Assembly (NCBI GenBank): GCA_963626295.1 | Contig: CAVFWS010000003.1 | Coordinates: 1-46,395 of the forward strand | Length of the DNA: 46,395 bases | Source of the DNA: Clostridium sp. CAG:138 | Lineage (GTDB): Bacteria > Verrucomicrobiota > Kiritimatiellia > RFP12 > UBA1067 | Reading direction: 5' to 3' | Shown here: positions 25,544-46,395 of the stretch, one piece after another | Layout of the letters: the number at the start of each line of letters is the position of its first letter | How positions within the stretch are numbered: position 1 is the stretch's first letter | Position numbers and translations under genes: made by a program | The notes under the pieces: generated by a model | What the model was told of the DNA's origin: nothing | Seen by the model: only the letters and a program-made list of their open reading frames with translations | Databases searched by the model: none

Positions 25544-25743
25544 AGGATGCCTCCTCCCGATGCCATTCTCGTTATGCGCAGGGGGCATCGCTTCCCGCGC
25601 ACCGCCTTCTTCGAGGCGAGGTAGCGGTCGACCTCGATCAAGTCCGTGACGGAGTGGTTCTCGACCCGCTGGCTGTCCACCTCCATCACCTTGGGCTGGA
25701 GGAGAAGTTTCTCCATCGCCTCGTCAACCTTCGACTGTTCCAT
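25540..25743 (-). CDS. gpW-like head completion protein
   Basis: 67 aa between the terminase region and the portal. VMEVDSQRVENHSVTDLIEVDRYLA resembles lambda W VEFTATSVSDLKKYIAELE. Confidence 0.55.
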   Translation of the reverse strand: MEQSKVDEAMEKLLLQPKVMEVDSQRVENHSVTDLIEVDRYLASKKAVRGKRCPLRITRMASGGGIL

Positions 25744-27091
25744 TTTCCACCTCGTTGATTCTTCTTCCGATCCACGCCATCACGTTGACGCACATCGAGT
25801 TACCAAGCGCCTTATAGCGGGGCGCGTCCGGGCAATCCTCCGCCGGATGTCTCTTCCAGGCGATCTTCGTGTGACCGTCCGGGAAACCCGTGAGCCGCTC
25901 CGCCTCCACGGGGAGGAGCATCCTCACGACCGGCACGGGGCCGTTCACGGACGTGCAGACCGCCGAGGGCCGACGCCGCGTGAGGACGTAGGCCGGATCG
26001 TCCGAGCCGCCGAGACAGGCGAGATAGTCGCGCTTCTCGCGTCCATCGAAGTTCGTCATGTCCACGGGGTAGCAGAGCTCGCCCGTCACCACCGCCTTCG
26101 GCTCCTTGTAGTCGGTGCCCAAGAGGGTCGGCGAAGAGCCGTCCGTCTCGGAGTGGGAGAACCAGCGGCGGTCGAGGACGCAGGGAAGCTGCCCCTTGTC
26201 CGGCATCCGCTGGCCGACCGAGCGGGTCGTCCACGTGGGCGCGGCCTTCGAGCCGTCCCACCACGTCAGTTCGCCCTGCGGCGTCCCGACAGGTACTCGA
26301 GTGCCGTCCTGAACATCTCCGGCATCGCCTTGAGCTTCCGTTCTGCGCGGCGGAGTATCCCCTCCGCACAGCTCGCCGTCAAATAGTACCTTCGCGGCAC
26401 GCTCCCACGAACCAAGACTTCCGACAAGGAGGACACGCTTCCTTCGCTGCGGGATTGCCCTTGGAAATTCGGGAACGCGGGTGTATTGAGCGTCAAGCAC
26501 TCGCCATGCCACGCCGAAGCATCCGGGGGCGTTGGTGACGATCCCGGAGTTCCGCCATCCGCCGTCGGGGACGGGGACTTCCCATCCGCAGAGGAGCGAT
26601 AGGAAGGCGGCAAAATCGCGTCCGGCCCCGCTTGTGAAGACGCCATTGACGTTCTCCCAAACCAGCCAGCGTGCGCCCGTGCGGTAAGCCAGGCGAGCAA
26701 ACTCAAGCGTAAGATTGCCTCTCGCATCTTCAAGTCCTTTCCGAAGCCCCGCCACGCTGAACGCCTGACAGGGGCTGCCGCCGACGAGGAGGTCGATGTC
26801 GCCCCCGACGTCGGATTTCTCGATCTTCGTGAAGTCGCCGAAGTTGGGGAGCGTACCGCCCTCGCGGACAAAGGGCATCGCCCGCAGCCACGACTCGCGG
26901 AGCTTCCGATCCTTCCCCGGCGGAACCGCCGCCGGATCGAGCGGACGGAGCGGCCTCGTCGCGCCGAACCTCTCGCGGAGGACGGCGCACGGAAACGGCT
27001 CCACCTCGGAGACGAAGGCGCACTCCCAGCCGAGGGGAGCCCATGCGACCGTGGCAGCCTCGATGCCACTGCAGACGCTTCCGTACCGCAT
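25724..27091 (-). CDS. DNA (cytosine-5)-methyltransferase
   Basis: Motifs SVCSGIEA (I), GGSPCQAFS (IV), WENV (VI), QRRKRV (VIII) and GNS (X), with RBS GAAAGGAAGGAGG. See the finding about an internal frame anomaly at 26266-26430. Confidence 0.85.
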   Translation of the reverse strand: MRYGSVCSGIEAATVAWAPLGWECAFVSEVEPFPCAVLRERFGATRPLRPLDPAAVPPGKDRKLRESWLRAMPFVREGGTLPNFGDFTKIEKSDVGGDIDLLVGGSPCQAFSVAGLRKGLEDARGNLTLEFARLAYRTGARWLVWENVNGVFTSGAGRDFAAFLSLLCGWEVPVPDGGWRNSGIVTNAPGCFGVAWRVLDAQYTRVPEFPRAIPQRRKRVLLVGSLGSWERAAKVLFDGELCGGDTPPRRTEAQGDAGDVQDGTRVPVGTPQGELTWWDGSKAAPTWTTRSVGQRMPDKGQLPCVLDRRWFSHSETDGSSPTLLGTDYKEPKAVVTGELCYPVDMTNFDGREKRDYLACLGGSDDPAYVLTRRRPSAVCTSVNGPVPVVRMLLPVEAERLTGFPDGHTKIAWKRHPAEDCPDAPRYKALGNSMCVNVMAWIGRRINEVENGTVEG

Positions 27092-27459: not shown

Positions 27460-29751
27460 TCATCCGCGAAGTTTTCTCAATTCCGAGAGTTTCATCTTTG
27501 GCTTCGATTCCGTCGACTTCTTGACGACCGTGTCCGTCCCCGCGAGGACGCATCCGGCCATCGAAGCGCCGACCGCACACCCGACGAGTCCGTCCCACCA
27601 GTGGTTGTCCGTTCCCTCCGGGCGCATCTTCCATTCCTCGACGCGCCGTCCGCGTCCCTCGGTCTTGACGCGGTACTCCGCAGTCAAGTGTTCGGCGAAA
27701 AGCATGTGCGTTTCGCTCGAACGCCCCCAGAGGGAGAGCGATCCACGGTCACCCATCGTCTCGAGGAGACGGCTGGCGACAAAACTCTTCCAGTAGTTCG
27801 TGTCGAAGACGACGTGCCGCACCGCCCGCTTCCCGCGGATGTTCGGCATCCGCCAGTTGTGGCCGACCCGGTCGCCCACAACCTTGTGGTACTCGCTCAT
27901 CGGCTTCGAGGAAGCGCCGATGTACTTGCCGTGCGAGGGGATGATGATGTTCGAGTAGGCGGACTCGCGGCAGAACTGGTAGACCACGTCGGTCGACTGA
28001 CCCCAGTTCGCGTCCACGAGACACTTCTCGATCTTCATCGCCGCTCCGTCGTCGCGGGTGAACTCGCGGGCGAGGTAATCGTCCGTGAGGGCCTTGAGTC
28101 CCGAGTAGAGGCATCCCTCCAAGCCGGAGCGAGGGAACTTCGACTGCAGCGTCGGATTCGCCTCCGAGAGCGTGAAGTACCGCCGCCTCTGGTCCGGCCA
28201 TGCGCCGTAGTCGATCACGTAACCCGTGAAGTCGTCGTCCCACGCGCACACGACGTAAAAGAGGAGAGTCTTCTGCACGTCCACGAACATCGTGATGTGG
28301 TTCGCCGAGACGGGAATCGTCCGCTGGGTGTGTCCGTTGATCTTGTTGACGATGCCGTCAACCGTCAGTTGCTCGTCCGTTCCCAAGTCCTCCGGCAGGG
28401 GTTCGTTCTGATACTCCGCCCAGAACGCCGATTCGTCGGTGAGCTTCAAGTTCATCGCATGCTGGACGGCGGAGATCTCGTCGTAGTTGTGCCGGTCGGG
28501 CCACGACACGACCGCACCCTCGTCCATCTCGAACTGATGCTCCCGGTAGAACTCGGTCGCTTTCTCGAACGTTCCGTTCTCCCGGAGTTCGTCGGCGCGT
28601 AGATCGGCGTACTTCTCCCACAGCTCCTCGTTCTTGGGGAACTGATAGATCATCTTGCATCGCTCCCCGTTCCACTCCGGATGCTTCGACTTGTCGAGGA
28701 TCTGCTCGGCCATGTCGCCGGGGCGGATGACCGTGCAGGGCATGATGCCCGCGATCTTCTTCCCCGGCCCCGCGAGGCCAAGGATGTCGCCCGCGAGGAC
28801 ACGGACGCGCTTTCTCGTCTGTTCGACGGAATCCGCCGATTCCGAGGTCTGCGGGTCGTCGATGACGACGAACTCGGGGCGGATCGTCCGCCCGTCCGGC
28901 TTCTTGTACTTCATGCCGCGAATGCGGCCCGTGATGCCCGCTACGCGGACGATCACTCCGGACGAGAGCGCGTCCCTGATCGTCGGAAGGACAATCTCGT
29001 TCGCGGTCCAAGTTATGCGCGTCCGCTCGCCCTTGTAGAGCTGACCGGCGCAGCGGTTCGCGATTCCCTCCAGCTTCGAGATCGGATAGGCGACCTCGGG
29101 GAAGTCCGCCGCTATGTGTTCGTTCACCTCGAACTCGGTCTTGATCGAATCGAGCATTTCCAAGGCGGCGGATTCGGAAGCGCCGATCAGCACGACGAAC
29201 TCGCGGTGACCGTAGAGCATCGCCCAGATCGCGGCGGTCTCGGTCAATGAAGACTTGCCGCTGCCACGACTCATGGCGAGTGCGAAAAGACCGCCCTCGA
29301 GGACTGACTTCTGTATCTTCGAGATGGCGCGGAGGTGGTCATCCGACCACTTGAGCTGGTAGACCTCGGGAAAGTACGTCTCGCAGAAGAGCTTGAAATC
29401 GTCCTTGCAGGACGCCTTGCGCTCCGGATTCTCGACTTCGGGCAGTTCGCCGATGTCGCGGCCTTCGAGCGAACGTTCGAGGGAACGCTTCGCCGCATCG
29501 GCCCTGATGTCATCGTAGTCCATCGCCGAGTTGTCCTCGGCCGGCGTGTTCTTCCGGTCGACGAGCCACGCGACGTACCGGTAGAAGCTGATGTAGTGGC
29601 TGTCCTCGGCGGACGCGATGCGGTAGCCCGCGTTCGTGAAGTGGCGGTAGACCTGCGCGGGAGAGACGACCGTCCCGAAGTCCGTCGAGTTGATGAGCTT
29701 CACCACCTCGGCCGGCTTCAGCTTCGAGGGCGTGATCGAATTAGTCGCCAT
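27460..29751 (-). CDS. terminase large subunit, lambda GpA-like, with an extra N-terminal domain
   Basis: 763 aa with Walker A MSRGSGKSS, FVVIDDPQT and a C-terminal nuclease region. The overall blocks resemble Terminase_GpA. Confidence 0.85.
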   Translation of the reverse strand: MATNSITPSKLKPAEVVKLINSTDFGTVVSPAQVYRHFTNAGYRIASAEDSHYISFYRYVAWLVDRKNTPAEDNSAMDYDDIRADAAKRSLERSLEGRDIGELPEVENPERKASCKDDFKLFCETYFPEVYQLKWSDDHLRAISKIQKSVLEGGLFALAMSRGSGKSSLTETAAIWAMLYGHREFVVLIGASESAALEMLDSIKTEFEVNEHIAADFPEVAYPISKLEGIANRCAGQLYKGERTRITWTANEIVLPTIRDALSSGVIVRVAGITGRIRGMKYKKPDGRTIRPEFVVIDDPQTSESADSVEQTRKRVRVLAGDILGLAGPGKKIAGIMPCTVIRPGDMAEQILDKSKHPEWNGERCKMIYQFPKNEELWEKYADLRADELRENGTFEKATEFYREHQFEMDEGAVVSWPDRHNYDEISAVQHAMNLKLTDESAFWAEYQNEPLPEDLGTDEQLTVDGIVNKINGHTQRTIPVSANHITMFVDVQKTLLFYVVCAWDDDFTGYVIDYGAWPDQRRRYFTLSEANPTLQSKFPRSGLEGCLYSGLKALTDDYLAREFTRDDGAAMKIEKCLVDANWGQSTDVVYQFCRESAYSNIIIPSHGKYIGASSKPMSEYHKVVGDRVGHNWRMPNIRGKRAVRHVVFDTNYWKSFVASRLLETMGDRGSLSLWGRSSETHMLFAEHLTAEYRVKTEGRGRRVEEWKMRPEGTDNHWWDGLVGCAVGASMAGCVLAGTDTVVKKSTESKPKMKLSELRKLRG

Positions 29752-29932: not shown

Positions 29933-30050
29933 TTCATGCCTCCGAAAAATAGTTCAAATGCCCGCTGGCTATTCCCGCGCGATTACGGCACAATGTCACC
30001 CGATCCTCCGGAATGGGTCCGGAGATCGCAACAAGAAAGGAACCGCACCT

Positions 30051-30365
30051 ATGTGCAAGAACAAGAAAGCGAGTCAGTCCAGCAAGGCCGCCGCAGCCCC
30101 GAAGGCCGCGAAAGCCGCAACGCCCAAGACGGGCGAGAAGAAGATGAGTCTCCTCAAGGCCGCAGTAGCGGTACTCGACAGGAGCGAGGAGGCGCTGGGG
30201 GCCAAGCAGCTCGTCGAGCGCGCCAAGTCCGAGGGACTCTGGACGCCCGGCGAGGGCAAGACCCCGGAGCAGACGCTCTACTCCGCAATGGTCCGCGAGA
30301 TCAAGACCAAGGGCGAGAACGCCCGCTTCACCAAGGACGGCGGACTCTTCCGCATCAAGCGGTGA
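30051..30365 (+). CDS. HARE-HTH domain protein with a Lys/Ala-rich histone-H1-like N-terminal tail
   Basis: The only convincing plus-strand gene. AAGAAAGGAAC RBS precedes ATG 30051. The tail is KNKKASQSSKAAAAPKAAKAATPKTGEKK, followed by MSLLKAAVAVLDRSEEALGAKQLVERAKSEGLW..KTPEQTLYSAMVREIK...RFTKDGGLFRIK. Confidence 0.65.
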   Translation: MCKNKKASQSSKAAAAPKAAKAATPKTGEKKMSLLKAAVAVLDRSEEALGAKQLVERAKSEGLWTPGEGKTPEQTLYSAMVREIKTKGENARFTKDGGLFRIKR

Positions 30366-30374
30366 GAGCCGCCC

Positions 30375-30599
30375 TTACCGCCGCCACGCGACCGCGCCCC
30401 AGACCGCGAACGCGAGGTGGACGAGGTCGAGGGCAAGCCGCGACCAGAGGCCGAGCGAGATGTCGACTATCGCCCACGCCACGTTCGCAACCGCCCAGAC
30501 GTAGAAGCATGAACGCATCTTCCACACGTTGAGGGCCGTTCCGAGGAGCGAAAAGGCCGTGAGCGACCAGAGGACGATCTGCATCCAAACGCCGCTCAT
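30375..30599 (-). CDS. 3-TM small membrane protein (PnuC-repeat-like signature; holin or transporter fragment?)
   Basis: MSGVWMQIVLWSLTAFSLLGTALNVWKMRSCFYVWAVANVAWAIVD... Start set by the ATGA overlap with the upstream small ORF. Confidence 0.5.
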   Translation of the reverse strand: MSGVWMQIVLWSLTAFSLLGTALNVWKMRSCFYVWAVANVAWAIVDISLGLWSRLALDLVHLAFAVWGAVAWRR

Positions 30600-30793: not shown

Positions 30794-31810
30794 CTACGAC
30801 TCGAAGCCGAAGAGTCCGGCCGCACAGCGGTCGGCGTAGCCGGGGTAGGCGAGGCCGAGCGTGTCGATGACGTGCGAGGCCGGTTCGGATTCGATGCCCG
30901 TTTCGAGGAGGTTGTTCTCCGCGTCGAAGTACGAGACGCGGATCTCCTTCCTGCCGATGCAGCACGAGATCTGGCACTGGACGAGCGGGAGGTTGTGCGC
31001 CTTCCGGTATTCGAGCGCCTTCATGCGGGCATAGACATTCAGGGTCACGTCCGCCTTCGTGGGATCCTTGCCCCACGGAGAGCCGCCGCCAATCCGGCTG
31101 TTACCGCCATAGAAGTCCACGACGAGCTTCCGACCGGTCGTGCCGCAGTCGCCTATGGAGCCATGCTTCACGTAGCGGCCCGTCCCGTTCACGACCACGT
31201 GGCAGTCATTGCCGACGAACTCGCGGACGAGCGCTTCGACCGGGGCTTCGCTCTCGCCGGGCGGGAGCGGGATCGCCACCACGCACTCGACGGGCTTGCC
31301 GTCCTCGAGCGTCACCTGCGTCTTCACGTCCAAGCCGCCGAGCTGGCGCGAGACGAGTTCCTGCGCGATCCGCCGGGCGAGCCAGTAGTCCTTCGGCATG
31401 TTGCCCGTCTCGGGATCGTCGACCGCGAGGCCGAAGAAGATCCCCTGGTCGCCCCAGCCGTCGGCATTCACGCCCTGCGCGATGTCGTCGGACTGCTGGG
31501 AGATGTGCAGGGCAACCTCCACGTCCGTTCCGTTGATGCAGTTCTGGTCGCCGAACTTCGCCTGATAGGCATCGTCGTAGCCGATCTTGCGGATCGCCTC
31601 ACGGACGAACTCGGAGAGTTCCGCATCGGTGAAGCGCCAAGTGGAGGTCACCTCGCCCGAGAGTGTGCAGAATCCGTCCTTGAGCTGAACCTCAAGGGCC
31701 ACGCGGGAGCGCGGATCCTTCTCGAGATAGCGGTCGAGGATGTGGCTGGCGATGTAGTCGCAGGTGCGGTCGGGGTGTCCGACGGCGCAGTATTCGCTTG
31801 TCTGAATCAT
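30794..31810 (-). CDS. metK: S-adenosylmethionine synthetase-like protein (short, divergent MetK)
   Basis: GHPDRTCDYIASHILD, GDQGIFFG and GDCGTTGRKLVVDFYGGNSRIGGGSPWGKDPTKADV correspond to the canonical MetK blocks GHPDK.CDQISD, GDQG and GDAGLTGRK..VDTYGG..HGGGAFSGKDP.KVD. Confidence 0.8.
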   Translation of the reverse strand: MIQTSEYCAVGHPDRTCDYIASHILDRYLEKDPRSRVALEVQLKDGFCTLSGEVTSTWRFTDAELSEFVREAIRKIGYDDAYQAKFGDQNCINGTDVEVALHISQQSDDIAQGVNADGWGDQGIFFGLAVDDPETGNMPKDYWLARRIAQELVSRQLGGLDVKTQVTLEDGKPVECVVAIPLPPGESEAPVEALVREFVGNDCHVVVNGTGRYVKHGSIGDCGTTGRKLVVDFYGGNSRIGGGSPWGKDPTKADVTLNVYARMKALEYRKAHNLPLVQCQISCCIGRKEIRVSYFDAENNLLETGIESEPASHVIDTLGLAYPGYADRCAAGLFGFES

Positions 31811-32108: not shown

Positions 32109-33458
32109 TCAGCCTTGCACGACCGCCGTTTCAGGGGCCGCCGTCTGGGCCTGGTCGAGCGGAAGATCGTCCGCGACTTCGAGCGGCGCGTCGGCCTCGG
32201 CTGGCGCGGATTCTCCGCCCGATTGCGCGGAATCTGCCGCTTCGGGGGCACTTTCCGCGCCGACGGGCGGGGTCTTCGCCGCCCAGTCGCAGCCCTCGCC
32301 GTGGACGAACTCGGCCCACCGGCGGCGGATCACGTCGCAGTACTTGGGGTCGAGTTCCATCGTCCGGCACTTGCGCCCCGTCTGCTCGCAGGCGATCAGA
32401 GTGGAGCCCGAGCCGCCGAACGTGTCGACGACGACATCGCCTTTCTTCGAGGAGTTGCGGATCAGATAGATCAGCATCTCGGTCGGCTTCATGGTCGGAT
32501 GCACGTCGTTCTTCTTCGGCTTGTTGAACTCCATGACAGTGGTCTGCGAGCGGTCGGCGTACCATTCGTGTCCGGCCCCGTCCTTCCAGCCGTAGAGGCA
32601 CGGCTCGTGAATCCACTGGTAGTCCTGCCGCCCCAAGACGAGCGAGTTTTTCTTCCACACGAGGCACTGGCGGACGCGGAGACCGACATCGTGACACGCG
32701 CCACGGAAGTTGTAGCCTTCGGAATCCGCGTGGAAGATGTAGAACGGCGCACCCGGCTTCATGACCTTTTCCGCACAGGCGAAGGCCGAGCGCAGGAACT
32801 CGCGGAACTTCACGTCCTCCATCGAGTCGTTCTGGATCGTGAGTCCGTTCGACCCCTCGTAGGCCACGTTGTACGGCGGATCGGTGAGCCAGAGATCGGC
32901 TTCCTCCCTGCCGACGAGCTTTTCCACGTCGCCGGACTTGGTGGAGTCGCCGCACATGAGGAGGTGATCCCCGAGGACGTACACCTCGCCCGCGCGGGAG
33001 AGTGCCGCCTCCGGCACTTCGGGTGCCTCGTTCGGATCGGTCTCGCCGAGCGACACCGTGTCCTCGCCGTTGAGGAGCTTTTCGAGTTCGTCATCGTCGA
33101 AGCCAAGTTCCGCGACCTCGAACCCGGCCTCCTGCAACGCCTTCAGTTCGGCGCGGAGAAGTTCCTCGTTCCACTCGGCGATTTCGCCCGTCTTGTTGTC
33201 GGCGATGCGGAGCGCGTTCTCCTGCTCGGGCGTGAGGTGGTCGACGATCACGGCGGGAATCGTCTCCACGCCGATCTCCTTCATGGCCTTCACCCGCGTG
33301 TGGCCGTTGATGATGACCTTGTCTTTGTTGAGGACAATCGCGCCGATGAATCCGAACTTCCGGATGGACGCCACGACCGATGCGACCGCATTGTCGTTGT
33401 TCCTCGGGTTCTTCTCGTATGGCGTGATCTCCGAGAGCTTCACGTTCACTATTTCCAT
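32109..33458 (-). CDS. ParB-like nuclease domain fused to an N6-adenine/N4-cytosine DNA methyltransferase
   Basis: The N-terminus has PYEKNPRNN..INGHTRVKA (ParB/Srx-like). It is followed by LWLTDPPYNV (DPPY motif) and DTFGGSGSTLIACEQTGR (SAM-binding). Confidence 0.85.
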   Translation of the reverse strand: MEIVNVKLSEITPYEKNPRNNDNAVASVVASIRKFGFIGAIVLNKDKVIINGHTRVKAMKEIGVETIPAVIVDHLTPEQENALRIADNKTGEIAEWNEELLRAELKALQEAGFEVAELGFDDDELEKLLNGEDTVSLGETDPNEAPEVPEAALSRAGEVYVLGDHLLMCGDSTKSGDVEKLVGREEADLWLTDPPYNVAYEGSNGLTIQNDSMEDVKFREFLRSAFACAEKVMKPGAPFYIFHADSEGYNFRGACHDVGLRVRQCLVWKKNSLVLGRQDYQWIHEPCLYGWKDGAGHEWYADRSQTTVMEFNKPKKNDVHPTMKPTEMLIYLIRNSSKKGDVVVDTFGGSGSTLIACEQTGRKCRTMELDPKYCDVIRRRWAEFVHGEGCDWAAKTPPVGAESAPEAADSAQSGGESAPAEADAPLEVADDLPLDQAQTAAPETAVVQG

Positions 33459-33469
33459 TGCTTTCCTTT

Positions 33470-33501
33470 CTTGAACGGCCCTTGAACGGGCCTTGAAACG
33501 G
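33470..33501 (-). repeat. three direct repeats CTTGAACGG / CTTGAACGG / CTTGAAACGG with 11-bp phasing
   Basis: Starts at 33470, 33481 and 33492, about 12-40 nt upstream of the ParB-MTase ATG (33458) and touching its RBS. Confidence 0.7.
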
Positions 33502-33827
33502 TTGATTTTCGATGCCAGAATCCGCTCGCAGAGCCGCTGGCGCGAGAGCGTCCATAATCGGGCATTACGGGCGCATACGCACCCGAGACGCCCGCATATG
33601 AATGTTTCTCACTGTAAACAAACTCTGCTTAGTAGCCCCGCTCCTTCCCGCGCCCTGCCGTCGATAGCCCACAGGGGGGAACCGTCGGAAATTCGCGGCT
33701 GGGGGCCGCCGGGGGCCGGGTCGCCCAGCACTCGCTCGGCTTGGGCGGAGGGCACGTGGGGCGTCCTTGGGGCCTTGCAGGCGAATCTGTGCGGCCTTGC
33801 GAGAGATCGCAGGGCACAATCTCCCTT

Positions 33828-33868
33828 GCAGCGTAGTTATTAGCCGTGCAGGGGTGTTTTGGTGCAGA
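33828..33868 (-). promoter_or_regulatory. conserved bipartite motif, copy C
   Basis: GCAGCGTAGTTATTAGCCG-N14-GGTGCAGA, about 370 nt upstream of the ParB-MTase ATG. Confidence 0.55.
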
Positions 33869-34107
33869 CTATTTTTCTGAAGATTCTTCACTTGCCCCGT
33901 TGACTTGCAGGACAAGTTGTGGCATCATATCCCGCTGTCGGCCACCCGTCTCCTTTCCTGCCGATGCGCATGCCTATTACAGGGCGCAAGCCCCGTTGCG
34001 CACCGACAGTGTTTGCGCCGGGTGGCCGACTTCTTTTCCCCTCGCGCACGCTCGCGCGATCATACACGCACAAAACCGCCCAAAAAGCGTGTTGCACACG
34101 ACTGCCA

Positions 34108-34319
34108 GCGAACGTGCGAACACAAGGAAGAGAGAAAGGATAGAAAGAGAAGAAAGTAAAAGAGAATATATATTTTCCTCTTGTTATGTCTTTCTCTTCG
34201 CTCTTTTTCTTCCGTTCGCCTTATGTTCGCACCGCGTTCGCATTTTGCGACTTCCACAGTCGCTTTCGCCGGATTCTGCTAACACTTTGCGAACGTAACG
34301 CGACCATCCGAATGAACGC
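34108..34319. other. origin-like region: GCGAAC/GTTCGC iterons flanking a purine-tract / (AT)4 / pyrimidine-tract core
   Basis: GCGAAC at 34108, 34116 and 34289. GTTCGC at 34214, 34225 and 34236 (exact 11-bp spacing). Purine run ~34124-34166, ATATATAT 34166-34173, pyrimidine run 34173-34213. Confidence 0.4.
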
Positions 34320-34320
34320 A

Positions 34321-34371
34321 AAAGACAACAAAAAAGGCGTCCGCAAGAGCATTCATACTCCTGCGGACGCC
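34321..34371 (-). terminator. rho-independent terminator after the replication module
   Basis: GGCGTCCGCA (34336-34345) and TGCGGACGCC (34362-34371), followed on the minus strand by TTTTTTGTTGTCTTT. It lies 26 nt after the prim-pol stop. Confidence 0.7.
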
Positions 34372-34397
34372 TTGCGTCCCTGTCACGAGTCACCGCA

Positions 34398-36668
34398 TCA
34401 TGGAAGCACATAGAACACGCCTCCGCGCTGTCCGTACTCCTTCTTGAGTCGACAGCTCTCGACGAGCGTATCCGTGATGCGCTTGAACGACTCCCGGTCA
34501 ATGTGCGAATTGCGGAGAAGCCGTCCGTGTGAGATGCGACCGCCGTGCGCCTTCACGCCGCGCATGAGCTTCATCGAGAGCGATTCGTACTCCGTGTCGG
34601 CGACGAACAGTCCCGCCATGAAGAGCATACGCTTCGTCATGTGTTCGACAAGTTTCCACGCCCAGTCGACGGCATCGACATCCATCATGGGATCGAGCGG
34701 ATTCTTGCTGATCGCGTAGAGCGCGGCGAGCTTCGACACCTTCTCCCCCGCACGCGCCCAGAGGGCGTTAGCGGAATCGCACTCGAGTTCCGATGCGCGG
34801 GCATACTCCTTGTCCGCGAGGGCGAACACCTCGTCGAGCCGCTTCGTCGCCTCGGTCGTTTCGGGCAACACCATCGGCTGCGGATATTCCTTGAGAAGGT
34901 TCTGCTCGTGTCCCATGCGCACCATGTCCCGGACAGTCTGGAGGATCGAACTCGGAAACGCCTCCTCGTGGGGCGTGCCCGCCATGCCGCGCTCCGCCGC
35001 CTCGAGGACGATGCACCGCGCCAGAAGACCGTTCTCCATCGTGCGCTCCGTGAGCGACTGGTAGAAGAACTTGGGTGTCGCCGTGCCGAACATCGTGAGA
35101 TGAGGCTGCGGGATGTACGAGCCGGACTGAGGCTGTCCGCGCTGAATCGCCTTCTTGCGCATGACGTGGGTGGTCTTCGATTCCGAGTAGAGCTTCAACA
35201 GCATCGAGCTGATCTGCTCCGCCCGCGCATCCTTCAGCTTCACCGTGTTGAAGAGATAGTCCACCTCGTCCACCTGGTAGAGCATGGACGGCGAAATGCA
35301 GAGCGAATCCTCCAAGCCCTCGCCCGAAGCGAAGGTGTCGCCGAGTTCGCCCAGCATCGACATCTGCGCCGCGAGGTCGATGTTCACGGAGCGAGGATGC
35401 TCCTTGCCCGTTCCGGACTTCGCCAAGGCGAGAAGATAGAGGTTGAACCGACTTCCCCGCTTGTCCTTGTAGCGGCGTCCCGTCAGATGCGAGAGCATCG
35501 CCATCGCTCCGGCGAACGCGAGCGCCTTGTTCGGATAGTAGGCCGTCCGCAAGGTATAGCCCATCAGATCCGACACGAATCCCGGCACGTTGAAATACTC
35601 CTCCGGAATGACGCCCGGATCCTCGTACTCGAACGCCGCCTCGTGTGCATCGTCCGCATCCTCCGGCTGGACGACGACCGCTTCGGATCCTTTCTGTGCG
35701 ACGCCCGTCCGCGCCACTTGCTGCGCGAGACCCATGATGCCCGCACACTCGGCCATCGGCACCTCGTCGCCCGTCCCGTATCCGCGTTCCAGCAATGTAC
35801 GCGCCGCCGCCGTGAAGTCGCCACCGTGTTCAAGGAGCGCATACACCTGAAACTTGTTGTACCCCTTGGCCTCGAAGGGAGCGGCGTTCGTCGAGAAGAC
35901 ACACAGAATCTCCCCGTTGAAGGTCGCCGAGTTGCCGTCCCCGGACTTGCCGGGACGCTGCCACAGTTCGTTTCCGTCCGGCTTCGTGCCGAGGAACTTC
36001 CAGCCGTGCGCCGTCAGAACGGGCCGGATGTCGCCACGTGCGCAGAAATCGTCGCCCGGTTTCACCAGAAAGGCCGAATCCTGCCCCTGTGTGGCCTCCG
36101 TGGGGGCGATTGCGTCCACACACTCGTTCATCGCCTCCGCCGCCGACACGAGGGCTTTACGCTCGTCTGTCGAAAGGACGGACAGTTTCTCAAACCGTCC
36201 CTGCAAAAGACAATAACCCTCGGTGGGGGCACAGAGAAAAAGTCCGCCCTCGCCTCGGGTTTCTATAAGCGTCGTCTTCTTTCCCTCGCGCATTCCCTGC
36301 GCGAGCTTCCGGTTTCCTTCTACGGGATCTTGTGTCCGATAGAGGACATGGTATCCGCCGGATGGTGTGCGTTCGACGACGAGCCGGTCGAAGAGTGACT
36401 GCTCCAACGTCGCCGCCCACGCCTCGAAGCATTCGCCGTGCGCGTCGAAGTCGATGCACTCCAGGTTTCCGGACACCGCGCCCGCCACGATGCACACGCC
36501 GTCCTGCGCGTTCGCGAACCACGCCCCGACCTCGTACTCGGTCGGAAGCCGTTTCGCCCACGTCTTCCACGATCCGACGGACGGACGCTTCCTCTGCCGC
36601 GCCGCCGGGAGGACGGAGAGTCCCGCCGAAAGGTACGACTTCGCCAGTTCGACCGTCACAGTAGCCAT
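34398..36668 (-). CDS. bifunctional primase-polymerase (prim-pol) N-terminal domain fused to a DUF3987/D5-like helicase-type C-terminal domain
   Basis: IDFDAHGE and TPSGGYHVLYR are typical prim-pol blocks. The large C-terminal region resembles phage/plasmid primase-helicases. 756 aa. Confidence 0.75.
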   Translation of the reverse strand: MATVTVELAKSYLSAGLSVLPAARQRKRPSVGSWKTWAKRLPTEYEVGAWFANAQDGVCIVAGAVSGNLECIDFDAHGECFEAWAATLEQSLFDRLVVERTPSGGYHVLYRTQDPVEGNRKLAQGMREGKKTTLIETRGEGGLFLCAPTEGYCLLQGRFEKLSVLSTDERKALVSAAEAMNECVDAIAPTEATQGQDSAFLVKPGDDFCARGDIRPVLTAHGWKFLGTKPDGNELWQRPGKSGDGNSATFNGEILCVFSTNAAPFEAKGYNKFQVYALLEHGGDFTAAARTLLERGYGTGDEVPMAECAGIMGLAQQVARTGVAQKGSEAVVVQPEDADDAHEAAFEYEDPGVIPEEYFNVPGFVSDLMGYTLRTAYYPNKALAFAGAMAMLSHLTGRRYKDKRGSRFNLYLLALAKSGTGKEHPRSVNIDLAAQMSMLGELGDTFASGEGLEDSLCISPSMLYQVDEVDYLFNTVKLKDARAEQISSMLLKLYSESKTTHVMRKKAIQRGQPQSGSYIPQPHLTMFGTATPKFFYQSLTERTMENGLLARCIVLEAAERGMAGTPHEEAFPSSILQTVRDMVRMGHEQNLLKEYPQPMVLPETTEATKRLDEVFALADKEYARASELECDSANALWARAGEKVSKLAALYAISKNPLDPMMDVDAVDWAWKLVEHMTKRMLFMAGLFVADTEYESLSMKLMRGVKAHGGRISHGRLLRNSHIDRESFKRITDTLVESCRLKKEYGQRGGVFYVLP

Positions 36669-42244: not shown

Positions 42245-42832
42245 TTATTTTTTGAAGTCGTGGATTTTCTGCAGACGCTTCGCGATTTTCGGCACGAGGC
42301 AGCGGATCACGCGCCAATGGGTGACACCCATCTTCTCCGCCGCACCGCGCAGGGTCTCGCCGTCCATCAGCAACTGGCAGAGCTGCATCGACAAGGGGTC
42401 GAGACCGCGCAGGGCTTCCGCCACGTCATTGTGCAGGTCGACATCGTCCACGCCGCCGTCACGTTCGTCGGGGACGGTGTCGATGCGCGATTCCTCGCAA
42501 TCCACCTCATCGTCGCCGCCGAAGCCGTCCTGGCAGACGGGTTCGTCGAGAACGCAGATGAAGCGCACGCGCTTTTCGCGGCGCTTGTTGCGCAGGAATT
42601 CCTTGGCGGCATTGTCCACGGCAGTGTGGAGGAACGTCTCGAGGGACGCCTTGGCTGCCTCATCGTAGGCATAACGCGCCTTGACGGCGGCCAGACTGAT
42701 GTGCTGCTTGAGATCGTCCTCGTCGGCGAAGGAGAACCCGACGTTGATGGACGTCTGACGGGTCTTCGTCTCGATGTACCTCATGGTGGTGGCAGGGATG
42801 AGCTCTGCGACACGATTGTTAGTGGTCTTCAT
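42245..42832 (-). CDS. phage-encoded sigma-70 family (ECF-like) sigma factor
   Basis: Region 2-like: DDLKQHISLAAVKARYAYD...ETFLHTAVDNAAKEFLRNKRREKR. Region 4-like: LDPLSMQLCQLLMDGETLRGAAEKMGVTHWRVIRCLVPKIAKRL. Confidence 0.7.
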   Translation of the reverse strand: MKTTNNRVAELIPATTMRYIETKTRQTSINVGFSFADEDDLKQHISLAAVKARYAYDEAAKASLETFLHTAVDNAAKEFLRNKRREKRVRFICVLDEPVCQDGFGGDDEVDCEESRIDTVPDERDGGVDDVDLHNDVAEALRGLDPLSMQLCQLLMDGETLRGAAEKMGVTHWRVIRCLVPKIAKRLQKIHDFKK

Positions 42833-43034
42833 GGTTCGTTGTTCCTTTTTGCGCCCCAGGCCGTTGCCGACCTGTGAGCTGTTTTTCGAGCATCGAACCG
42901 CCTCTGTCCGCCAGAGCCAGAAGACCGTTCCGACTCCTCAAGACCCAAACCACCCGGCTTGGTGGGGCGATTCGCCTCTTGCCGGGTTCGTCAATCTCGT
43001 TTGCGATCTTGATTCGCCCGACCACACACGGGCG

Positions 43035-43065
43035 AAGTTCCACACGAAGACCTTAAGTGGAACTT
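43035..43065. promoter_or_regulatory. palindromic operator-like site AAGTTCCAC-N13-GTGGAACTT (proximal)
   Basis: Perfect 9-bp inverted arms at 43035-43043 and 43057-43065, about 200 nt upstream of the sigma ATG. Confidence 0.55.
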
Positions 43066-43099
43066 GGAAAGTGCAACAGGACATTCAGGAAAAATGAAA

Positions 43100-43138
43100 A
43101 TGGCCGTTTCCGCGTCTTTTACACACGGAAACAGCCAT
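43100..43138 (-). other. 13-bp imperfect inverted repeat with a 13-nt spacer; T-rich tail on the minus strand (attenuator/terminator candidate)
   Basis: ATGGCCGTTTCCG ... CGGAAACAGCCAT with one mismatch. The minus strand continues TTTCATTTTTCC. Confidence 0.35.
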
Positions 43139-43172
43139 TATCTCGAATGGAAAAATCTGAAATTTATTTTGG

Positions 43173-43223
43173 AAGTTCCACTCGTTTTCCTTAAGTGGAA
43201 CTTTGACGCCTTAAATGGAACTT
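43173..43223. promoter_or_regulatory. palindromic operator-like site AAGTTCCAC-N13-GTGGAACTT (distal) plus an extra half-site ATGGAACTT
   Basis: Arms at 43173-43181 and 43195-43203, with the extra half-site at 43215-43223. The spacer length matches the proximal site. Confidence 0.55.
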
Positions 43224-43240
43224 TCGGGAATGGTGGAGAA

Positions 43241-43273
43241 ACAAAAAACGCAGCCGGTCAACCCGACTGCGTT
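43241..43273 (-). terminator. rho-independent terminator of the low-GC cassette
   Basis: AACGCAGCCGG / CCGACTGCGTT arms (one G-U pair) with a 5-nt loop, followed on the minus strand by TTTTTTGTTT. It lies 24 nt after the stop at 43297. Confidence 0.7.
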
Positions 43274-43296
43274 CTCATCTGATCTCGTATCCGAGC

Positions 43297-44331
43297 TTAC
43301 TTCGCGGATTTGTGTCTTGCCATTTCGGCCAAATACAATCGATAGAAATTGCCATAGAGGGTTTGCGCGTCCTGTCCAGCCGAAAACGGCTTCTCCTCAA
43401 CAATCTTCGCAAAGATGAAGAAGTAATCGTATACAGTGACGACGTTGAACCAGAACTGAGCACACGATTCATCATCGCCCCAATGCCACTTGGCGTTGAG
43501 ATATCGAATCATTGTGTTTTTGGGGATGTTCAATTCACGCCCAATCTCCGCAACATTCTTAGTCTCGCGGATGGCTTTCTCCCGTTCTTCCCATGTTGGA
43601 AGACTCATAATCGAGAAGAACCGATCCTTCAAATACTCCGCGATCTTCCGCTCGCGCGCCAATGTGTCGGCGCGCTTTCCTCGCTTCTTCGGAACAACGG
43701 ACTCGGAAAGACGATTCGTGAACTCGTCGAGGACAAACGAAACCGTACCATCATCCGCGAACCGCACTACTTGGTCGAAGGTGTAGATGCGCCGCCGGTA
43801 CTGATCATCGAATTGCGTCAAATCGCACTCAAGCGATCCGACAAGCAAAAGAAAATTCTGATTCTGAAGCAACTTGGGAAGGGATTCGAGATCTGCTTTG
43901 CCGCACCGCGTCATGATGACGATTTCACGTTCCTGCGTCTCGGCTATGTCGCTGTGTCCCAGCCGCCACACTTTGCCGTCGCCAATTTTCTCAACACCCT
44001 CGCACTCAAGACGCTCACAGACAATAGCCGCAAAGCGGTCGGGGTCGTAGACCAATGAAAAGACACGTTCAGCGTCGACATCGATTACCTCACCCGTCAG
44101 CTCGCAGGTGTACGCCCACTGCGGTTTCTCGGCGGTTTCATCACGAACATAAGGCGTCGGCATGAAGTCGCAATCATGACAATCATCGCAGTCTATCGTG
44201 TGAAGTCGTTCGCCCCAAATGAGAACGCCGGACAACACCAGAGGATTTTTCGATCCTCCGGGAAGAGTGCAGACCGTCCAATAGGGATTCTCGTTACGAA
44301 GCTGCTGCGTCAGTATTCGGGTCGTTTTCAT
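43297..44331 (-). CDS. hypothetical protein with a Cys/His/Asp cluster and a C-terminal HTH (cassette gene 3)
   Basis: 344 aa with HTIDCDDCHDCDF and NVAEIGRELNIPKNTMIRYL. Lower GC than the phage backbone. Overlaps the upstream gene by 38 nt. Confidence 0.6.
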   Translation of the reverse strand: MKTTRILTQQLRNENPYWTVCTLPGGSKNPLVLSGVLIWGERLHTIDCDDCHDCDFMPTPYVRDETAEKPQWAYTCELTGEVIDVDAERVFSLVYDPDRFAAIVCERLECEGVEKIGDGKVWRLGHSDIAETQEREIVIMTRCGKADLESLPKLLQNQNFLLLVGSLECDLTQFDDQYRRRIYTFDQVVRFADDGTVSFVLDEFTNRLSESVVPKKRGKRADTLARERKIAEYLKDRFFSIMSLPTWEEREKAIRETKNVAEIGRELNIPKNTMIRYLNAKWHWGDDESCAQFWFNVVTVYDYFFIFAKIVEEKPFSAGQDAQTLYGNFYRLYLAEMARHKSAK

Positions 44332-45502
44332 CGGGCGACTTTGTGATGCCGTACTTGCGCATGTATTCCTTGAATCCCTTTTGCACCTTCTTTGGCGCGG
44401 ACATCAATCCTCCGATGGATGTCTCGGAAATTCTGAATGTTCTCGGCACGTCGTTCTTCTTCGCCGAATCATAAGTGATGCGGATCGTCACGCGCTGGAC
44501 GGTCGTGGTATCACGATTGAGTAGATCGTCGCTCAACTCCTCCTTGATCGTCGCCTGCAGATCGCGCTCCGCCTCAAAATACGACCGGCGGCGCTTCTTG
44601 GTGTTGTCGAGAAGGATGTCCAGTCCAATTACGGTCGCCGTCTTGATGCCCGCATCAGGCAAGGGCGGCAATTTCGACTTGTTCTTGAACTGGCTGATGG
44701 TGTATCTGACTTCGTCAATGCGCTTGTAGCCGTCCGCACCGAAAATGGCATCGGCAAGCACGGACGAGAGTTCCCGGCATCCTCTTGGATTGCTTGTGTA
44801 GAGGATGCTCATCCGGTAGGTGTCGTAATCAAACGAGAGCACAACCTTGAATGCCTTCAAGTTGTCAGTCGGCTTGAAGTCCTGTGACTCTTCGCTCCAG
44901 AATTCGTCTGCCGACTTGTGGTCGGTCAGTTTGAAGACAATGTTCTCCTTGTCACCGACGGTATAGCACTCGCTCTTGCAATGCCGTCCGCGATATTCGC
45001 GGTGCGAGATCGACTTGACGATGGCTTTCTCGAGTTGGGTCTTTCGCTCTTCGATGAGACCGCGCTGCGGATCCTGCTCGAACTGGAGATCGAAGCTCTT
45101 CCATTCGCCGGGGTTGAAGTTGTTGATGAGCGCACGCCCACGAAGCCGCCCCCATTGAACCGGTTCGAGATTGAGCCAGCTCCAGGTCGCCATCTGAGCT
45201 GCATTCCATTCGTCGAATCCATCCGGCGTCTCCTTGCGCATCTCGTAGAGCGTGGAGAGGATTACGGGGATGTTCTTGTTCTCACGCCCCACCGGCGCAA
45301 TCTCCTCCAGCGTCAGACCAACCTCATCCTGGATCTCGTCCGGCAGTTTCGCCAACGCATCGCACAACGGCTTGATGTTGCGTTTGCTGGACTTCTTCCA
45401 TTCCTCGTCCAAACCCTCGATATGAAGCCGCTCGAACAATTGCTCGAGCAGTTTCTGGTCGATCCTTTTGACGATCTCGTTTACTTCATGATGTTCTGCC
45501 AT
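44294..45502 (-). CDS. hypothetical protein, no recognisable motifs (cassette gene 2)
   Basis: 402 aa with a GGAGAA RBS and lower GC. I could find no Walker or nuclease motifs. Confidence 0.6.
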   Translation of the reverse strand: MAEHHEVNEIVKRIDQKLLEQLFERLHIEGLDEEWKKSSKRNIKPLCDALAKLPDEIQDEVGLTLEEIAPVGRENKNIPVILSTLYEMRKETPDGFDEWNAAQMATWSWLNLEPVQWGRLRGRALINNFNPGEWKSFDLQFEQDPQRGLIEERKTQLEKAIVKSISHREYRGRHCKSECYTVGDKENIVFKLTDHKSADEFWSEESQDFKPTDNLKAFKVVLSFDYDTYRMSILYTSNPRGCRELSSVLADAIFGADGYKRIDEVRYTISQFKNKSKLPPLPDAGIKTATVIGLDILLDNTKKRRRSYFEAERDLQATIKEELSDDLLNRDTTTVQRVTIRITYDSAKKNDVPRTFRISETSIGGLMSAPKKVQKGFKEYMRKYGITKSPDENDPNTDAAAS

Positions 45503-45537
45503 AATTTAAGTTCTCCGTTTTACAGATTGAGTGCTAT

Positions 45538-46311
45538 CTACAATGGGTACGCACGATAATTCGCTATTCCTTTGCGCACGTTTCCCTTGCCGACAGTTGT
45601 ATTGTCGATACGCTTCTTCAAGAAGGTGCAAAGCTCGCCAAATCGAGATGAAGACACGGCGACAGCCTTCGTGCCAAACTGTTTCCTAATTGCCCGACTG
45701 AGATTGACGGCTACGACTTTTGGATTAAGCGAATAAGCACCTGCCAGTTGCTTGTATTGGTCGATCAGATAGAGGACATACGCCCTCTGCGCGGCATTGC
45801 GCTGGATTGCATCGTCGGGAATCGGATCGCGTTGCGGATGCATGAAAACATTGACCGTCTGCTGGGCGTTTCCGGTTGCCTCGTTGTGAACGGAATGGTT
45901 GTAGACGGTCTTCTTTACCGTTGTCTTTCTGACGACAGCATTGTCCATGTAAATCTTCGTCAGTCTGCCATCGATAGGATCAATGTCCAGACGACCAAGA
46001 GACTCATGATTACGCTTCATCTCGCGTAATCTTGCCACGGTGTATCCATTGCGTTTATCGTCGATCAACGTATGATGATCATGGCACAGCAATATGAGGT
46101 TGTCACAATCGTTCAGGTGCTCATCCGGCAAGTTTGGGTTGTGTCGTGCGGAACCCTTTGCAACGCCCTCGATGTGCGCTATCTCGCCCATGACGGTGTT
46201 CGTTGTCTCGTCCACGATCATGCGATTGCATCCATCAAATGCGCACATGTTTCGCGACTTTGCGAACAATGCCTTGATAGTACGTTCGGGTATGGGCTTC
46301 CGTCTTGCCAT
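45538..46311 (-). CDS. HNH endonuclease domain protein with an unknown C-terminal domain (cassette gene 1)
   Basis: CAFDGC...GEIAHIEG...NLPDEHLNDCDNLILLCHDHHTLID is a CxxC ... H ... N ... CxxHH HNH signature. Start at MARRKP (ATG 46311). The track's start at 46323 is TTG. Confidence 0.7.
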   Translation of the reverse strand: MARRKPIPERTIKALFAKSRNMCAFDGCNRMIVDETTNTVMGEIAHIEGVAKGSARHNPNLPDEHLNDCDNLILLCHDHHTLIDDKRNGYTVARLREMKRNHESLGRLDIDPIDGRLTKIYMDNAVVRKTTVKKTVYNHSVHNEATGNAQQTVNVFMHPQRDPIPDDAIQRNAAQRAYVLYLIDQYKQLAGAYSLNPKVVAVNLSRAIRKQFGTKAVAVSSSRFGELCTFLKKRIDNTTVGKGNVRKGIANYRAYPL

Positions 46312-46327: not shown

Positions 46328-46395
46328 TCAAGAATTGGTTTCGCTCTTGCGCACCTCGGCGATCTCCATGCGGCGCGTCAGCTCGCCCTCGACCT
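46328..46395 (-). CDS. 3' end of an upstream high-GC ORF (partial)
   Basis: The reading frame ...VEGELTRRMEIAEVRKSETNS ends at TGA (46330-46328). Only 22 codons are visible. Confidence 0.35.
   Translation of the reverse strand, partial: VEGELTRRMEIAEVRKSETNS

Follow-up and report, generated by a model that had tools for sequence, protein, structure and literature searches.

The analysed window is a stretch of DNA of 46,395 nucleotides (nt) (contig CAVFWS010000003.1 of assembly GCA_963626295.1, deposited as Clostridium sp. CAG:138), which belongs to a siphovirus-like phage with essentially every gene on the minus strand. Two overlapping genes near its right end, named here A and B, were found to form a conserved pair that occupies a constant location in all related phage contigs sampled. 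We propose that the pair is obligate and coupled in translation, and that its products make up a soluble complex that binds DNA. Neither the pairing nor its constant location was described in the literature searched, and A and B belong to no described family. The interpretation that we favour, tentatively, is that A-B could be a Rex-like immunity-region module, expressed in the lysogen and acting on the adjacent operators, in a lineage of temperate siphophages with serine-recombinase integration. It is favoured because the pairing, the position, the covariation with the operators, a recombination breakpoint and the fold class of A all fit it. The pair and the gene upstream of it are as follows.

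43297-44331, minus strand: gene B, 344 amino acids (aa), overlapping gene A by 38 nt
44294-45502, minus strand: gene A, 402 aa, no sequence family
45538-46311, minus strand: gene of an HNH protein, 257 aa from ATG (preceded at 7 nt by a GAGG ribosome-binding site) or 261 aa if started at a TTG further upstream

The A-B gene pair and its proteins

Gene B directly follows gene A wherever the contig shows both, namely in the window and in the related loci L001-8, L009, L010, L013, L016-18, L020, L023, L025, L027, L030, L032 and L035. The two genes overlap by 4-50 nt in all of these loci but L027, where they are adjacent and 208 nt apart. The pairing is kept even at an identity of ~17-32%, at which hhalign still recognises both partners; the paired members with the lowest identity (~17-26%) are L027, L030, L032 and L035. 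All relatives of A and B come from metagenomes or metagenome-assembled genomes (MAGs). Among 5.8e9 proteins, the relatives of A make up only 17 clusters and those of B 12 clusters, and 56 clusters of B relatives (at 50% identity) were found among 1.84e9 representatives. Scanning IMG/VR with the alignment of A revealed no relatives, and collections of phages and plasmids searched by tblastn with A and B yielded none either.

Searches of Pfam, NCBIfam, PHROGs and PADLOC gave no match for A or B. Scanning the family members singly did not change this for A, and for B it gave only scattered weak C-terminal matches to helix-turn-helix (HTH) families. An earlier note on this DNA, made from the sequence without database searches, had likewise been able to name no system for the two proteins. 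Sequence-profile searches of the PDB with A and B returned noise only, and no plausible constellation of conserved catalytic residues was found in the wider families of either protein.

The AlphaFold 2 model of A (pLDDT 85) combines a helical N-terminal domain of acidic character (aa 1-127) with a basic alpha/beta part resembling RdgC and CENP-N (aa 130-385). Its best matches in the PDB, found using Foldseek, were RdgC (2owy, 2owl) and CENP-N, with E ~3e-5 and a probability of 1.0, the template modelling (TM) score being only 0.29-0.41. The RexA protein of phage lambda has been shown crystallographically to share the RdgC/Chl4-Iml3 fold, binds DNA non-specifically and biases the lambda switch (PMC11077077). 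As judged from the model, the likeness of A to RexA is one of fold class and not of family membership.

The same resemblance allows another explanation, in which A would be a phage analogue of RdgC modulating RecA and recombination, with B as a co-factor; such a pair could dampen SOS induction or protect phage DNA, a role in phage benefit or anti-defence. The model of A suggests the RdgC fold, the pair adjoins the phage recombination genes for an exonuclease and Sak4, and RdgC of E. coli inhibits RecA strand exchange and LexA cleavage, as cited in PMC11077077. However, A shows no sequence relationship to RdgC, and the RdgC family PF04381 gave no match at E up to 5 in any of the 17 A-family members. 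In addition, this explanation, which we consider very improbable, does not account for the obligate HTH/zinc partner, the linkage to operators and the copies of the pair beside restriction-modification genes with no phage genes in view.

In the AlphaFold 2 model of B (pLDDT 81) there are a Cys4 cluster (C48, C51, C54, C76) and an alpha/beta domain, which a disordered K/R linker (aa 209-220) joins to a putative HTH domain of basic and helical character (aa 221-343). The four cysteines are invariant in the 11 closest relatives aligned, in agreement with the metal-cluster-like segment described in the earlier note, and the CxxC motif and C76 persist in the consensus of 56 clusters. The C-terminal HTH claimed in the same place stands as a putative domain, suggested by scattered HTH matches in Pfam among family members and by the basic character of the helical domain (isoelectric point (pI) 9.4). 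No match to the model of B below E = 0.08 was found in the PDB and BFVD using Foldseek. Two familiar types of protein were considered for B. A cI/LexA-type repressor found no counterpart in the form of a Peptidase_S24 or HTH_3 match in B of the window. As for a membrane partner like RexB, B has no hydrophobic segment (maximum of 1.39 in a 19-residue Kyte-Doolittle window) and is predicted to be soluble; no transmembrane segments were found in A, B or the HNH protein.

Control region, mosaicism and genomic context

The A-B pair lies directly upstream of a sigma-like gene, from which it is separated by a non-coding region of 464 nt (42833-43296). The following elements were found there.

43244-43276, minus strand: intrinsic-terminator-like hairpin of 14 pairs with a T-run, which ends the HNH-A-B transcription unit
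43173-43223: operator-like cluster 1, two direct copies of AAGTTCCA(C/T)TTAAGG with an inverted partner (arms 43173-43182 and 43194-43203)
43099-43139, minus strand: second hairpin with a T-run, 17 pairs, between the operator clusters; its position is conserved in related loci
43035-43065: operator-like cluster 2, inverted repeat AAGTTCCAC-N13-GTGGAACTT, followed by a conserved hairpin rich in guanine and cytosine (GC) and a leader into the sigma-like gene
42245-42832, minus strand: sigma-70-like factor, 195 aa, whose gene opens the early operon (exonuclease and Sak4 come next) and stands beside A-B throughout this phage lineage

Five half-sites of the type AAGTTCCAC(TT) were counted, which form two inverted repeats (43173-43203 and 43035-43065) and one extra direct copy; the motif was not found elsewhere in the 46 kb. 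The terminator-like element is also present after B in L001, L005, L013 and L016. A possible promoter after cluster 1 runs straight into the 17-pair hairpin, as for a short RNA or an attenuator, and this hairpin may be an attenuator or a terminator. The GC hairpin has the form CGCCCG...CGGGCG, and the leader of ~200 nt behind it is conserved in L001, L005, L013 and L016.

The architecture of the control region recurs in the relatives and the half-site differs by phage, being AAGTTCGGG in L004 and AAATCCGA in L030. The putative recognition helix of B reads KNTMIRYL or KSTMTRYL where the operator is kept (window, L001, L005, L016) and KSVMNEII in L004. A palindrome TAAGT-N3-ACTTA upstream of the pairs in L023 and L025 resembles the operators, which is suggestive only.

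Comparison of the window with its relatives showed an identity of 81-84% for the exonuclease, 87% for Sak4, 80% for A (38% in L005), 56-66% for B and 34-42% for the sigma-like protein, and A-B evolves far faster than the backbone genes. The DNA of L005 and L016 is 95.9% identical from about codon 88 of B through the operators, the sigma-like gene, the exonuclease and Sak4. Upstream of this codon the DNA cannot be aligned, and the proteins are 38% (A) and 16-43% (N-terminus of B) identical. The breakpoint of recombination is sharp and lies inside B (L005 2771 / L016); the cargo upstream is DndH in L005 and the HNH gene in L016. Therefore, the HTH half of B was inherited with the operators, and A with the N-terminus of B. 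The unit of exchange is thus A together with the zinc-cluster N-terminus of B, which implies that both parts work together.

These features also allow a broader, possible though doubtful, assumption, namely that A-B represents an undescribed two-protein class of immunity or defence systems. In it, an RdgC-fold DNA clamp (A) would be coupled via the zinc-cluster domain to a DNA-targeting B of novel fold; the cassette of A and the N-terminus of B would be swapped to change sensing, and the C-terminus of B would set the site. Such systems would have moved out of the immunity regions of prophages into defence islands of bacteria, next to restriction-modification systems, and would protect against phages there.

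In at least four diverged phage groups A-B is located at the junction of a variable defence island and the early operon, and the sigma-like gene is present in 3 of 4. The pair is co-directional with the early operon in the lineage of the window and divergent from it in L030, L032 and L035. In the relatives of the window phage the stretch upstream of the sigma-like gene is low in GC (0.46-0.57 vs 0.62-0.66) and variable in content; within it A-B invariably comes last, with the terminator and control region after it. The defence-type cargo setting claimed in the earlier note was borne out by these relatives, since their islands hold DndH, bacteriophage exclusion (BREX), restriction-modification and PDC-S45 genes. 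The cargo of several loci is as follows.

L005-8, upstream: DndH (1e-302) and a 90-aa gene of ribbon-helix-helix (RHH)-like type directly before A-B
L012: BrxC, PglZ and BrxL with cysteine desulfurase
L001 and L003: a giant FtsK-like ATPase of another kind, C5 methyltransferase and PRiA4_ORF3
L004: ADP-ribosylglycohydrolase on the upstream side, a trypsin-like protease (PDC-S45) on the downstream side
L021: C5 methyltransferase, a weak HEPN-like match and DUF4268

The giant ATPase of L001 and L003 was considered as a DndH, and BLAST against the DndH of L006 gave no support for this; only the protein of the L006 type was shown to be DndH. The conserved 90-aa protein (MANQLNPN.Y.LMCRCPL...), RHH-like, is encoded upstream of A-B at 8392-8664 in L001, 6152-6424 in L003, 1049-1321 in L005 and 8543-8815 in L006.

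The locus L030 was found via its exonuclease gene, independently of A or B, and still carries the pair. The identity is 73% for its exonuclease and 79% for its Sak4, and a very divergent A-B occupies the same place in inverted orientation, divergent from the sigma-like gene and followed by HsdR/HsdM-like genes. A plus-strand terminator-like hairpin and a repeat cluster before the sigma-like gene (L030 8052-8240) are retained despite the inversion of A-B, with no obvious plus-strand gene upstream to terminate. In L032 the pair is divergent from a PrimPol/DUF3987 operon and followed by an HsdM-like gene (the Hsd-like genes of both loci were identified by eye, in L030 from N-terminal sequences); a 224-aa protein of L032 was considered as a sigma homologue, which was not supported. 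In L035 a small gene precedes A-B, and the early operon, which includes a sigma-like gene and an exonuclease, runs divergently from them; on the downstream side of the pair there are a Cro/C1-type controller, two C5 methyltransferases, an MmeI-type enzyme, a helicase and a T5orf172 protein.

The locus L013 is an integrated, decayed prophage in a chromosome with a GC content of ~0.71. It includes host genes, a serine recombinase, a truncated HNH gene, a frameshifted A, an intact B, the sigma-like gene and the exonuclease. Apart from B, whose own HTH is a tentative assignment, none of the genes called in the interval that separates the integrase of L013 from its early genes has an HTH family on record. 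An AbiEi/AbiEii pair is inserted after DUF669 at 14501-15753 of this locus, and its Sak4 genes are fragmented.

The mechanism that we infer for a Rex-like module, in all its steps, would be the following. The A protein, with its RdgC/RexA-type fold, would bind or encircle DNA non-specifically and dock on the zinc-cluster N-terminus of B. The C-terminal HTH of B would anchor the two proteins at the phage-specific inverted repeats, which lie a short way downstream where the early operon with its sigma-like gene is controlled. Transcription of the module in the lysogen would be shared with the cargo upstream of it, and the terminator would separate it from the early operon. The complex would keep the early operon shut in the resident prophage and in incoming relatives with the same operators, and may also modulate the switch, as reported for lambda RexA. 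Copies beside restriction-modification genes without visible phage genes could be an orphaned or domesticated leftward operon of immunity and defence.

Several observations weigh against this Rex-like interpretation. Comparison of the A family with lambda RexA by hhalign gave a probability of 0.1 and no sequence similarity, and RexA was not among the top 50 Foldseek matches of the A model. The link between B and the operators is correlative, and the sigma-like protein or the 90-aa RHH-like protein could bind the repeats instead of B. The A protein and the N-terminus of B evolve much faster than the backbone, which would equally fit a sensor in an arms race, and the GC content of A-B follows the cargo island and not the backbone. 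No phage genes are in view in five loci. L017, from a MAG named Azospirillum sp. 51_20, has DnaE, RpoN, T2SSE and PfkB on one side of the pair and C5 methyltransferase and HindVP on the other, and L009 lies beside NtrBC-type genes. The remaining three are the short contigs of L010 (Eco47II), L023 (HTH, YhcG and type I S subunit) and L025 (C5 methyltransferase and HATPase_c_3). Housekeeping-type, visibly bacterial neighbours were found only in L017 and L009. The C-terminus of B is a different domain in L009, L010 and L017. Finally, the phage lineage was sampled independently of A and B, with usable flanks, only once (L030).

Some of these points are also in favour of another, rather unlikely, explanation, according to which A-B is an autonomous two-gene system of anti-phage defence or exclusion. 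In this case A would be a DNA-sensing RdgC/RexA-like protein and B its partner or output, and the system would act independently of the operators and often be retained in the defence hotspot. The pair adjoins restriction-modification genes without phage genes in L010, L017, L023 and L025, and copies beside such genes share a strong extended -10 promoter of their own. In phages it is found among DndH, BREX, PDC-S45 and HNH genes, its GC content is cargo-like, A and the N-terminus of B are hypervariable and swapped as a cassette, and RexA gives a precedent. However, the searches detected neither an effector nor an enzymatic domain, the wider families share no conserved catalytic residues, and there was no match in PADLOC v2. 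Variable defence cargo is normally patchy among related phages. Unlike such cargo, the pair is present in every relative seen, always at the boundary of the early operon and in both orientations; thus, A-B is not ordinary patchy cargo. By analogy with lambda RexA, the immunity and autonomous-defence explanations need not be mutually exclusive. The promoter is near-identical in L009, L010, L017 and L018 (TTTTATGGTACAATA-like, ~30-50 nt before A); the A proteins of these loci are 37-44% identical to that of the window.

The association of the pair with many unrelated defence systems and the putative HTH domain of B are also consistent with a transcriptional regulator of the adjoining island, similar to BrxR/CapW, that would turn on restriction-modification, BREX or Dnd genes upon entry of foreign DNA. 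Defence genes are located downstream of the pair on the same strand in L023, L025, L030, L032 and L035. However, in the lineage of the window the pair lies at the 3' end of the island, in front of a terminator. In L010 and L017 the pair and the restriction-modification genes converge, and in L023 and L035 these genes are separated from B by a small Cro/C1-type controller gene of their own. We therefore regard regulation of the island as quite improbable.

The HNH gene and the surrounding contig

The first 108 residues of the HNH protein form a nuclease domain of the Cap5/PDC-M68A type. A match to the Pfam family HNH_2 (PF13391) was found above the gathering cut-off (E = 5.9e-6), and the PADLOC profile PDC-M68A was matched with 1e-29, over positions 1-106 of its 253 only. 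In PADLOC the N-terminus also matches HNH endonuclease effectors of the cyclic oligonucleotide-based anti-phage signalling system (CBASS), SAVED-HNH proteins and the N-terminus of SduA. The residues H46, N71, H79, H80 and C76 are conserved in at least 90% of the homologues, so that the catalytic His/Asn/His and the zinc-binding Cys are intact. Both the HNH signature and the nuclease effector type, which the earlier note had read from the sequence, are supported by these results. The C-terminal half of the protein is very basic (pI 10.1) and has no family match. Weak relatives of the HNH protein occupy the lysogenic-conversion slot of P2-like phages. An HNH associated with the packaging terminase was also considered and rejected: the terminase (27460-29751) and the portal gene (24137-25588) are ~16 kb off, and the HNH gene lies at the other end of the contig in a low-GC island.

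In the earlier note the HNH gene, A and B had been taken as one defence system, in which A-B would sense infection and license the HNH nuclease as effector. Only in the window, L016, L020, L012 and L013 does the HNH gene immediately precede A, each time at a distance of 35 nt. In addition to this arrangement, 3 of the 3 contexts found from the HNH family have A-B within three genes, and the slot beside the pair is occupied in relatives by other effector-like enzymes (ADP-ribosylglycohydrolase, the trypsin-like PDC-S45 protease and an alpha/beta hydrolase). However, most A-B loci lack the HNH gene (L001, L004, L005-8, L009, L010, L017, L023, L025, L030, L032 and L035), and two other genes stand between HNH and A in L003. 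In L005-8 the pair has no adjacent effector candidate of this kind and directly follows the 90-aa gene and DndH. The HNH proteins of the sub-lineage are 77-80% identical and A is 80% identical there; therefore, plain co-inheritance suffices to explain the linkage. The claim of a single three-gene system was thus abandoned as improbable: A and B travel together, including beside restriction-modification genes, and the HNH gene is absent from most of their loci. We conclude that the HNH gene is single-gene cargo encoding a defence-type nuclease, a facultative and dispensable neighbour inherited with A-B in one sub-lineage.

The compositional claims of the earlier note, namely a sharp drop in GC and a foreign composition compared with the backbone, agree with formal counts. 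The GC content of 43297-46311 is 0.520, and that of 1-42832 is 0.629. Windows of 1 kb inside the island (n = 10) have a mean GC of 0.524 and a maximum of 0.548, those outside it (n = 168) a mean of 0.630 (sd 0.022) and a minimum of 0.557, so that each inside window is below the lowest outside window. GC at third codon positions is 0.59, 0.72 and 0.61 in the HNH gene, A and B, respectively, compared with 0.82-0.87 in the adjacent backbone genes. GC-rich coding resumes at 46328-46395 and below ~43000. The minus-strand reading frames of 257, 402 and 344 aa with a 35-nt gap and a 38-nt overlap, the terminator of their own (the 14-pair hairpin with T-run after B) and the location beside a regulatory region, where repeats and the early operon adjoin the cassette, were likewise recovered. 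The note had set conserved genes of the lineage with matching GC against its cargo reading; the conserved position was found for A-B, while a match of their GC to the backbone was not.

Other features of the contig, including auxiliary phage genes (NrdD, the C5 cytosine methyltransferase, the S-adenosylmethionine (SAM) synthetase and the ParB-N6/N4 methyltransferase), are given below.

2-1477, minus strand: NrdD, an anaerobic ribonucleotide reductase with ATP-cone, truncated at the window start, ~200 residues missing
14203-19002, minus strand: tape-measure protein, 1599 aa
24137-25588: lambda-type portal gene
25724-27091: C5 cytosine methyltransferase
27460-29751: gpA-type terminase
30794-31810: SAM synthetase
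32109-33458: ParB-N6/N4 methyltransferase fusion
46328-46395, minus strand: GC-rich 3' end of the upstream backbone gene (protein end ...VEGELTRRMEIAEVRKSETNS, then stop), cut by the window end; right-hand edge of the low-GC island

Tail genes, capsid, PrimPol/DUF3987, helicase, DUF669, Sak4 and a DUF3799-type exonuclease were also found, and the window contains three DNA methyltransferases. A terminal repeat, as expected of a closed circle, was looked for and not found, and NrdD is cut at the start; therefore, the contig is incomplete. No DNA similarity to 50,697 phage genomes was found for the cassette or for 25 kb of the backbone, and scans of the window for tRNA and Rfam families gave no match.

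The tape-measure protein contains ~25 tandem copies of a ~29-aa unit (…ATVSAKLHxxAVAKTAVAAKFxGMIASLKGVN…), an unusually long and regular array. A stretch of ~940 nt (33460-34400) between the ParB-N6 methyltransferase and PrimPol genes has no convincing open reading frame (ORF) and no tRNA or Rfam match; the lowest GC of the backbone (0.524, at 34001-34500) lies inside it, and the stretch could serve as an origin of replication or be a non-coding element. Plausible genes on the plus strand are few; one of them (~30080-30365) encodes a Lys/Ala-rich, histone-H1-like N-terminus and a small helical, HARE-HTH-like C-terminus, and an extreme AT skew (0.459, at 30001-30500) coincides with it. Plus-strand ORFs at 19.7-21.3 kb were considered as a hidden repressor cassette and rejected, since they look like shadows of the real minus-strand tail genes.

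Comparison with known systems

The HNH protein resembles CBASS Cap5/SAVED-HNH, PDC-M68A and the N-terminal HNH of Shedu SduA in its first 108 residues (E from 1e-29 to 1e-17). In contrast to these systems, its C-terminal half is unrelated and no cyclase or other partner gene is found nearby. With regard to CBASS Cap5, the protein has no SAVED match in Pfam, and its neighbours are A, B and the cut backbone gene. With regard to a full PDC-M68 system, the profile was matched over the stated N-terminal part only and A and B match no PADLOC model. With regard to Shedu, one SduA model was matched at residues 8-107 only, and there was no DUF4263 match.

The A-B pair resembles the cI/Cro or ImmR/ImmA modules in that it lies between the integrase and cargo side and the early operon (divergently from the latter in L030, L032 and L035). 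It is also similar to them in having a putative HTH protein, phage-specific inverted-repeat operators (candidates here) and a mosaic exchange of 'immunity types'. However, A and B are two large proteins of ~400 and ~340 aa with no S24 peptidase or ImmA metalloprotease domain, and the HTH of B is C-terminal, behind the zinc cluster and a domain without a fold match. RdgC, the DNA-binding ring of E. coli associated with recombination, and the kinetochore proteins CENP-N/Chl4 are the best structural matches of the A model, and the RdgC-like part of A is basic, which is consistent with DNA binding; unlike them, A has another N-terminal domain and is always paired with B.

Should A-B act in defence on its own, it would represent a new family that the current defence databases lack. 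Either way, the locus is a hotspot of defence genes (Dnd, BREX, restriction-modification, HNH, PDC-S45) anchored by a recognisable pair, which is useful for mining the cargo of metagenomic prophages.

The closest comparison is with RexA-RexB of lambda (cI-rexA-rexB-timm, beside OL/PL), which is a gene pair of a prophage immunity region ending in a terminator next to operators. A-B likewise ends in a terminator next to operator-like repeats, in a putative immunity region. The first protein of the lambda pair is non-enzymatic, DNA-binding and of the RdgC fold class, as is predicted for A; RexA also influences the lysis-lysogeny switch (PMC11077077). The differences are that A, with 402 aa, has an extra N-terminal helical domain, that B is a soluble protein with a zinc cluster and a putative HTH whereas RexB is a four-helix membrane protein, and that no cI-like gene precedes A-B in most loci. 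If A-B is a Rex-like module, switch or immunity genes could be named for a group of uncultured phages whose hosts are probably Verrucomicrobia and in which the genes seen to date include no canonical repressor. The pair would then give a comparative handle on the long-unsolved Rex mechanism, and the RdgC/RexA fold class would gain a second, unrelated type of partner, namely a soluble zinc/HTH protein instead of a membrane protein.

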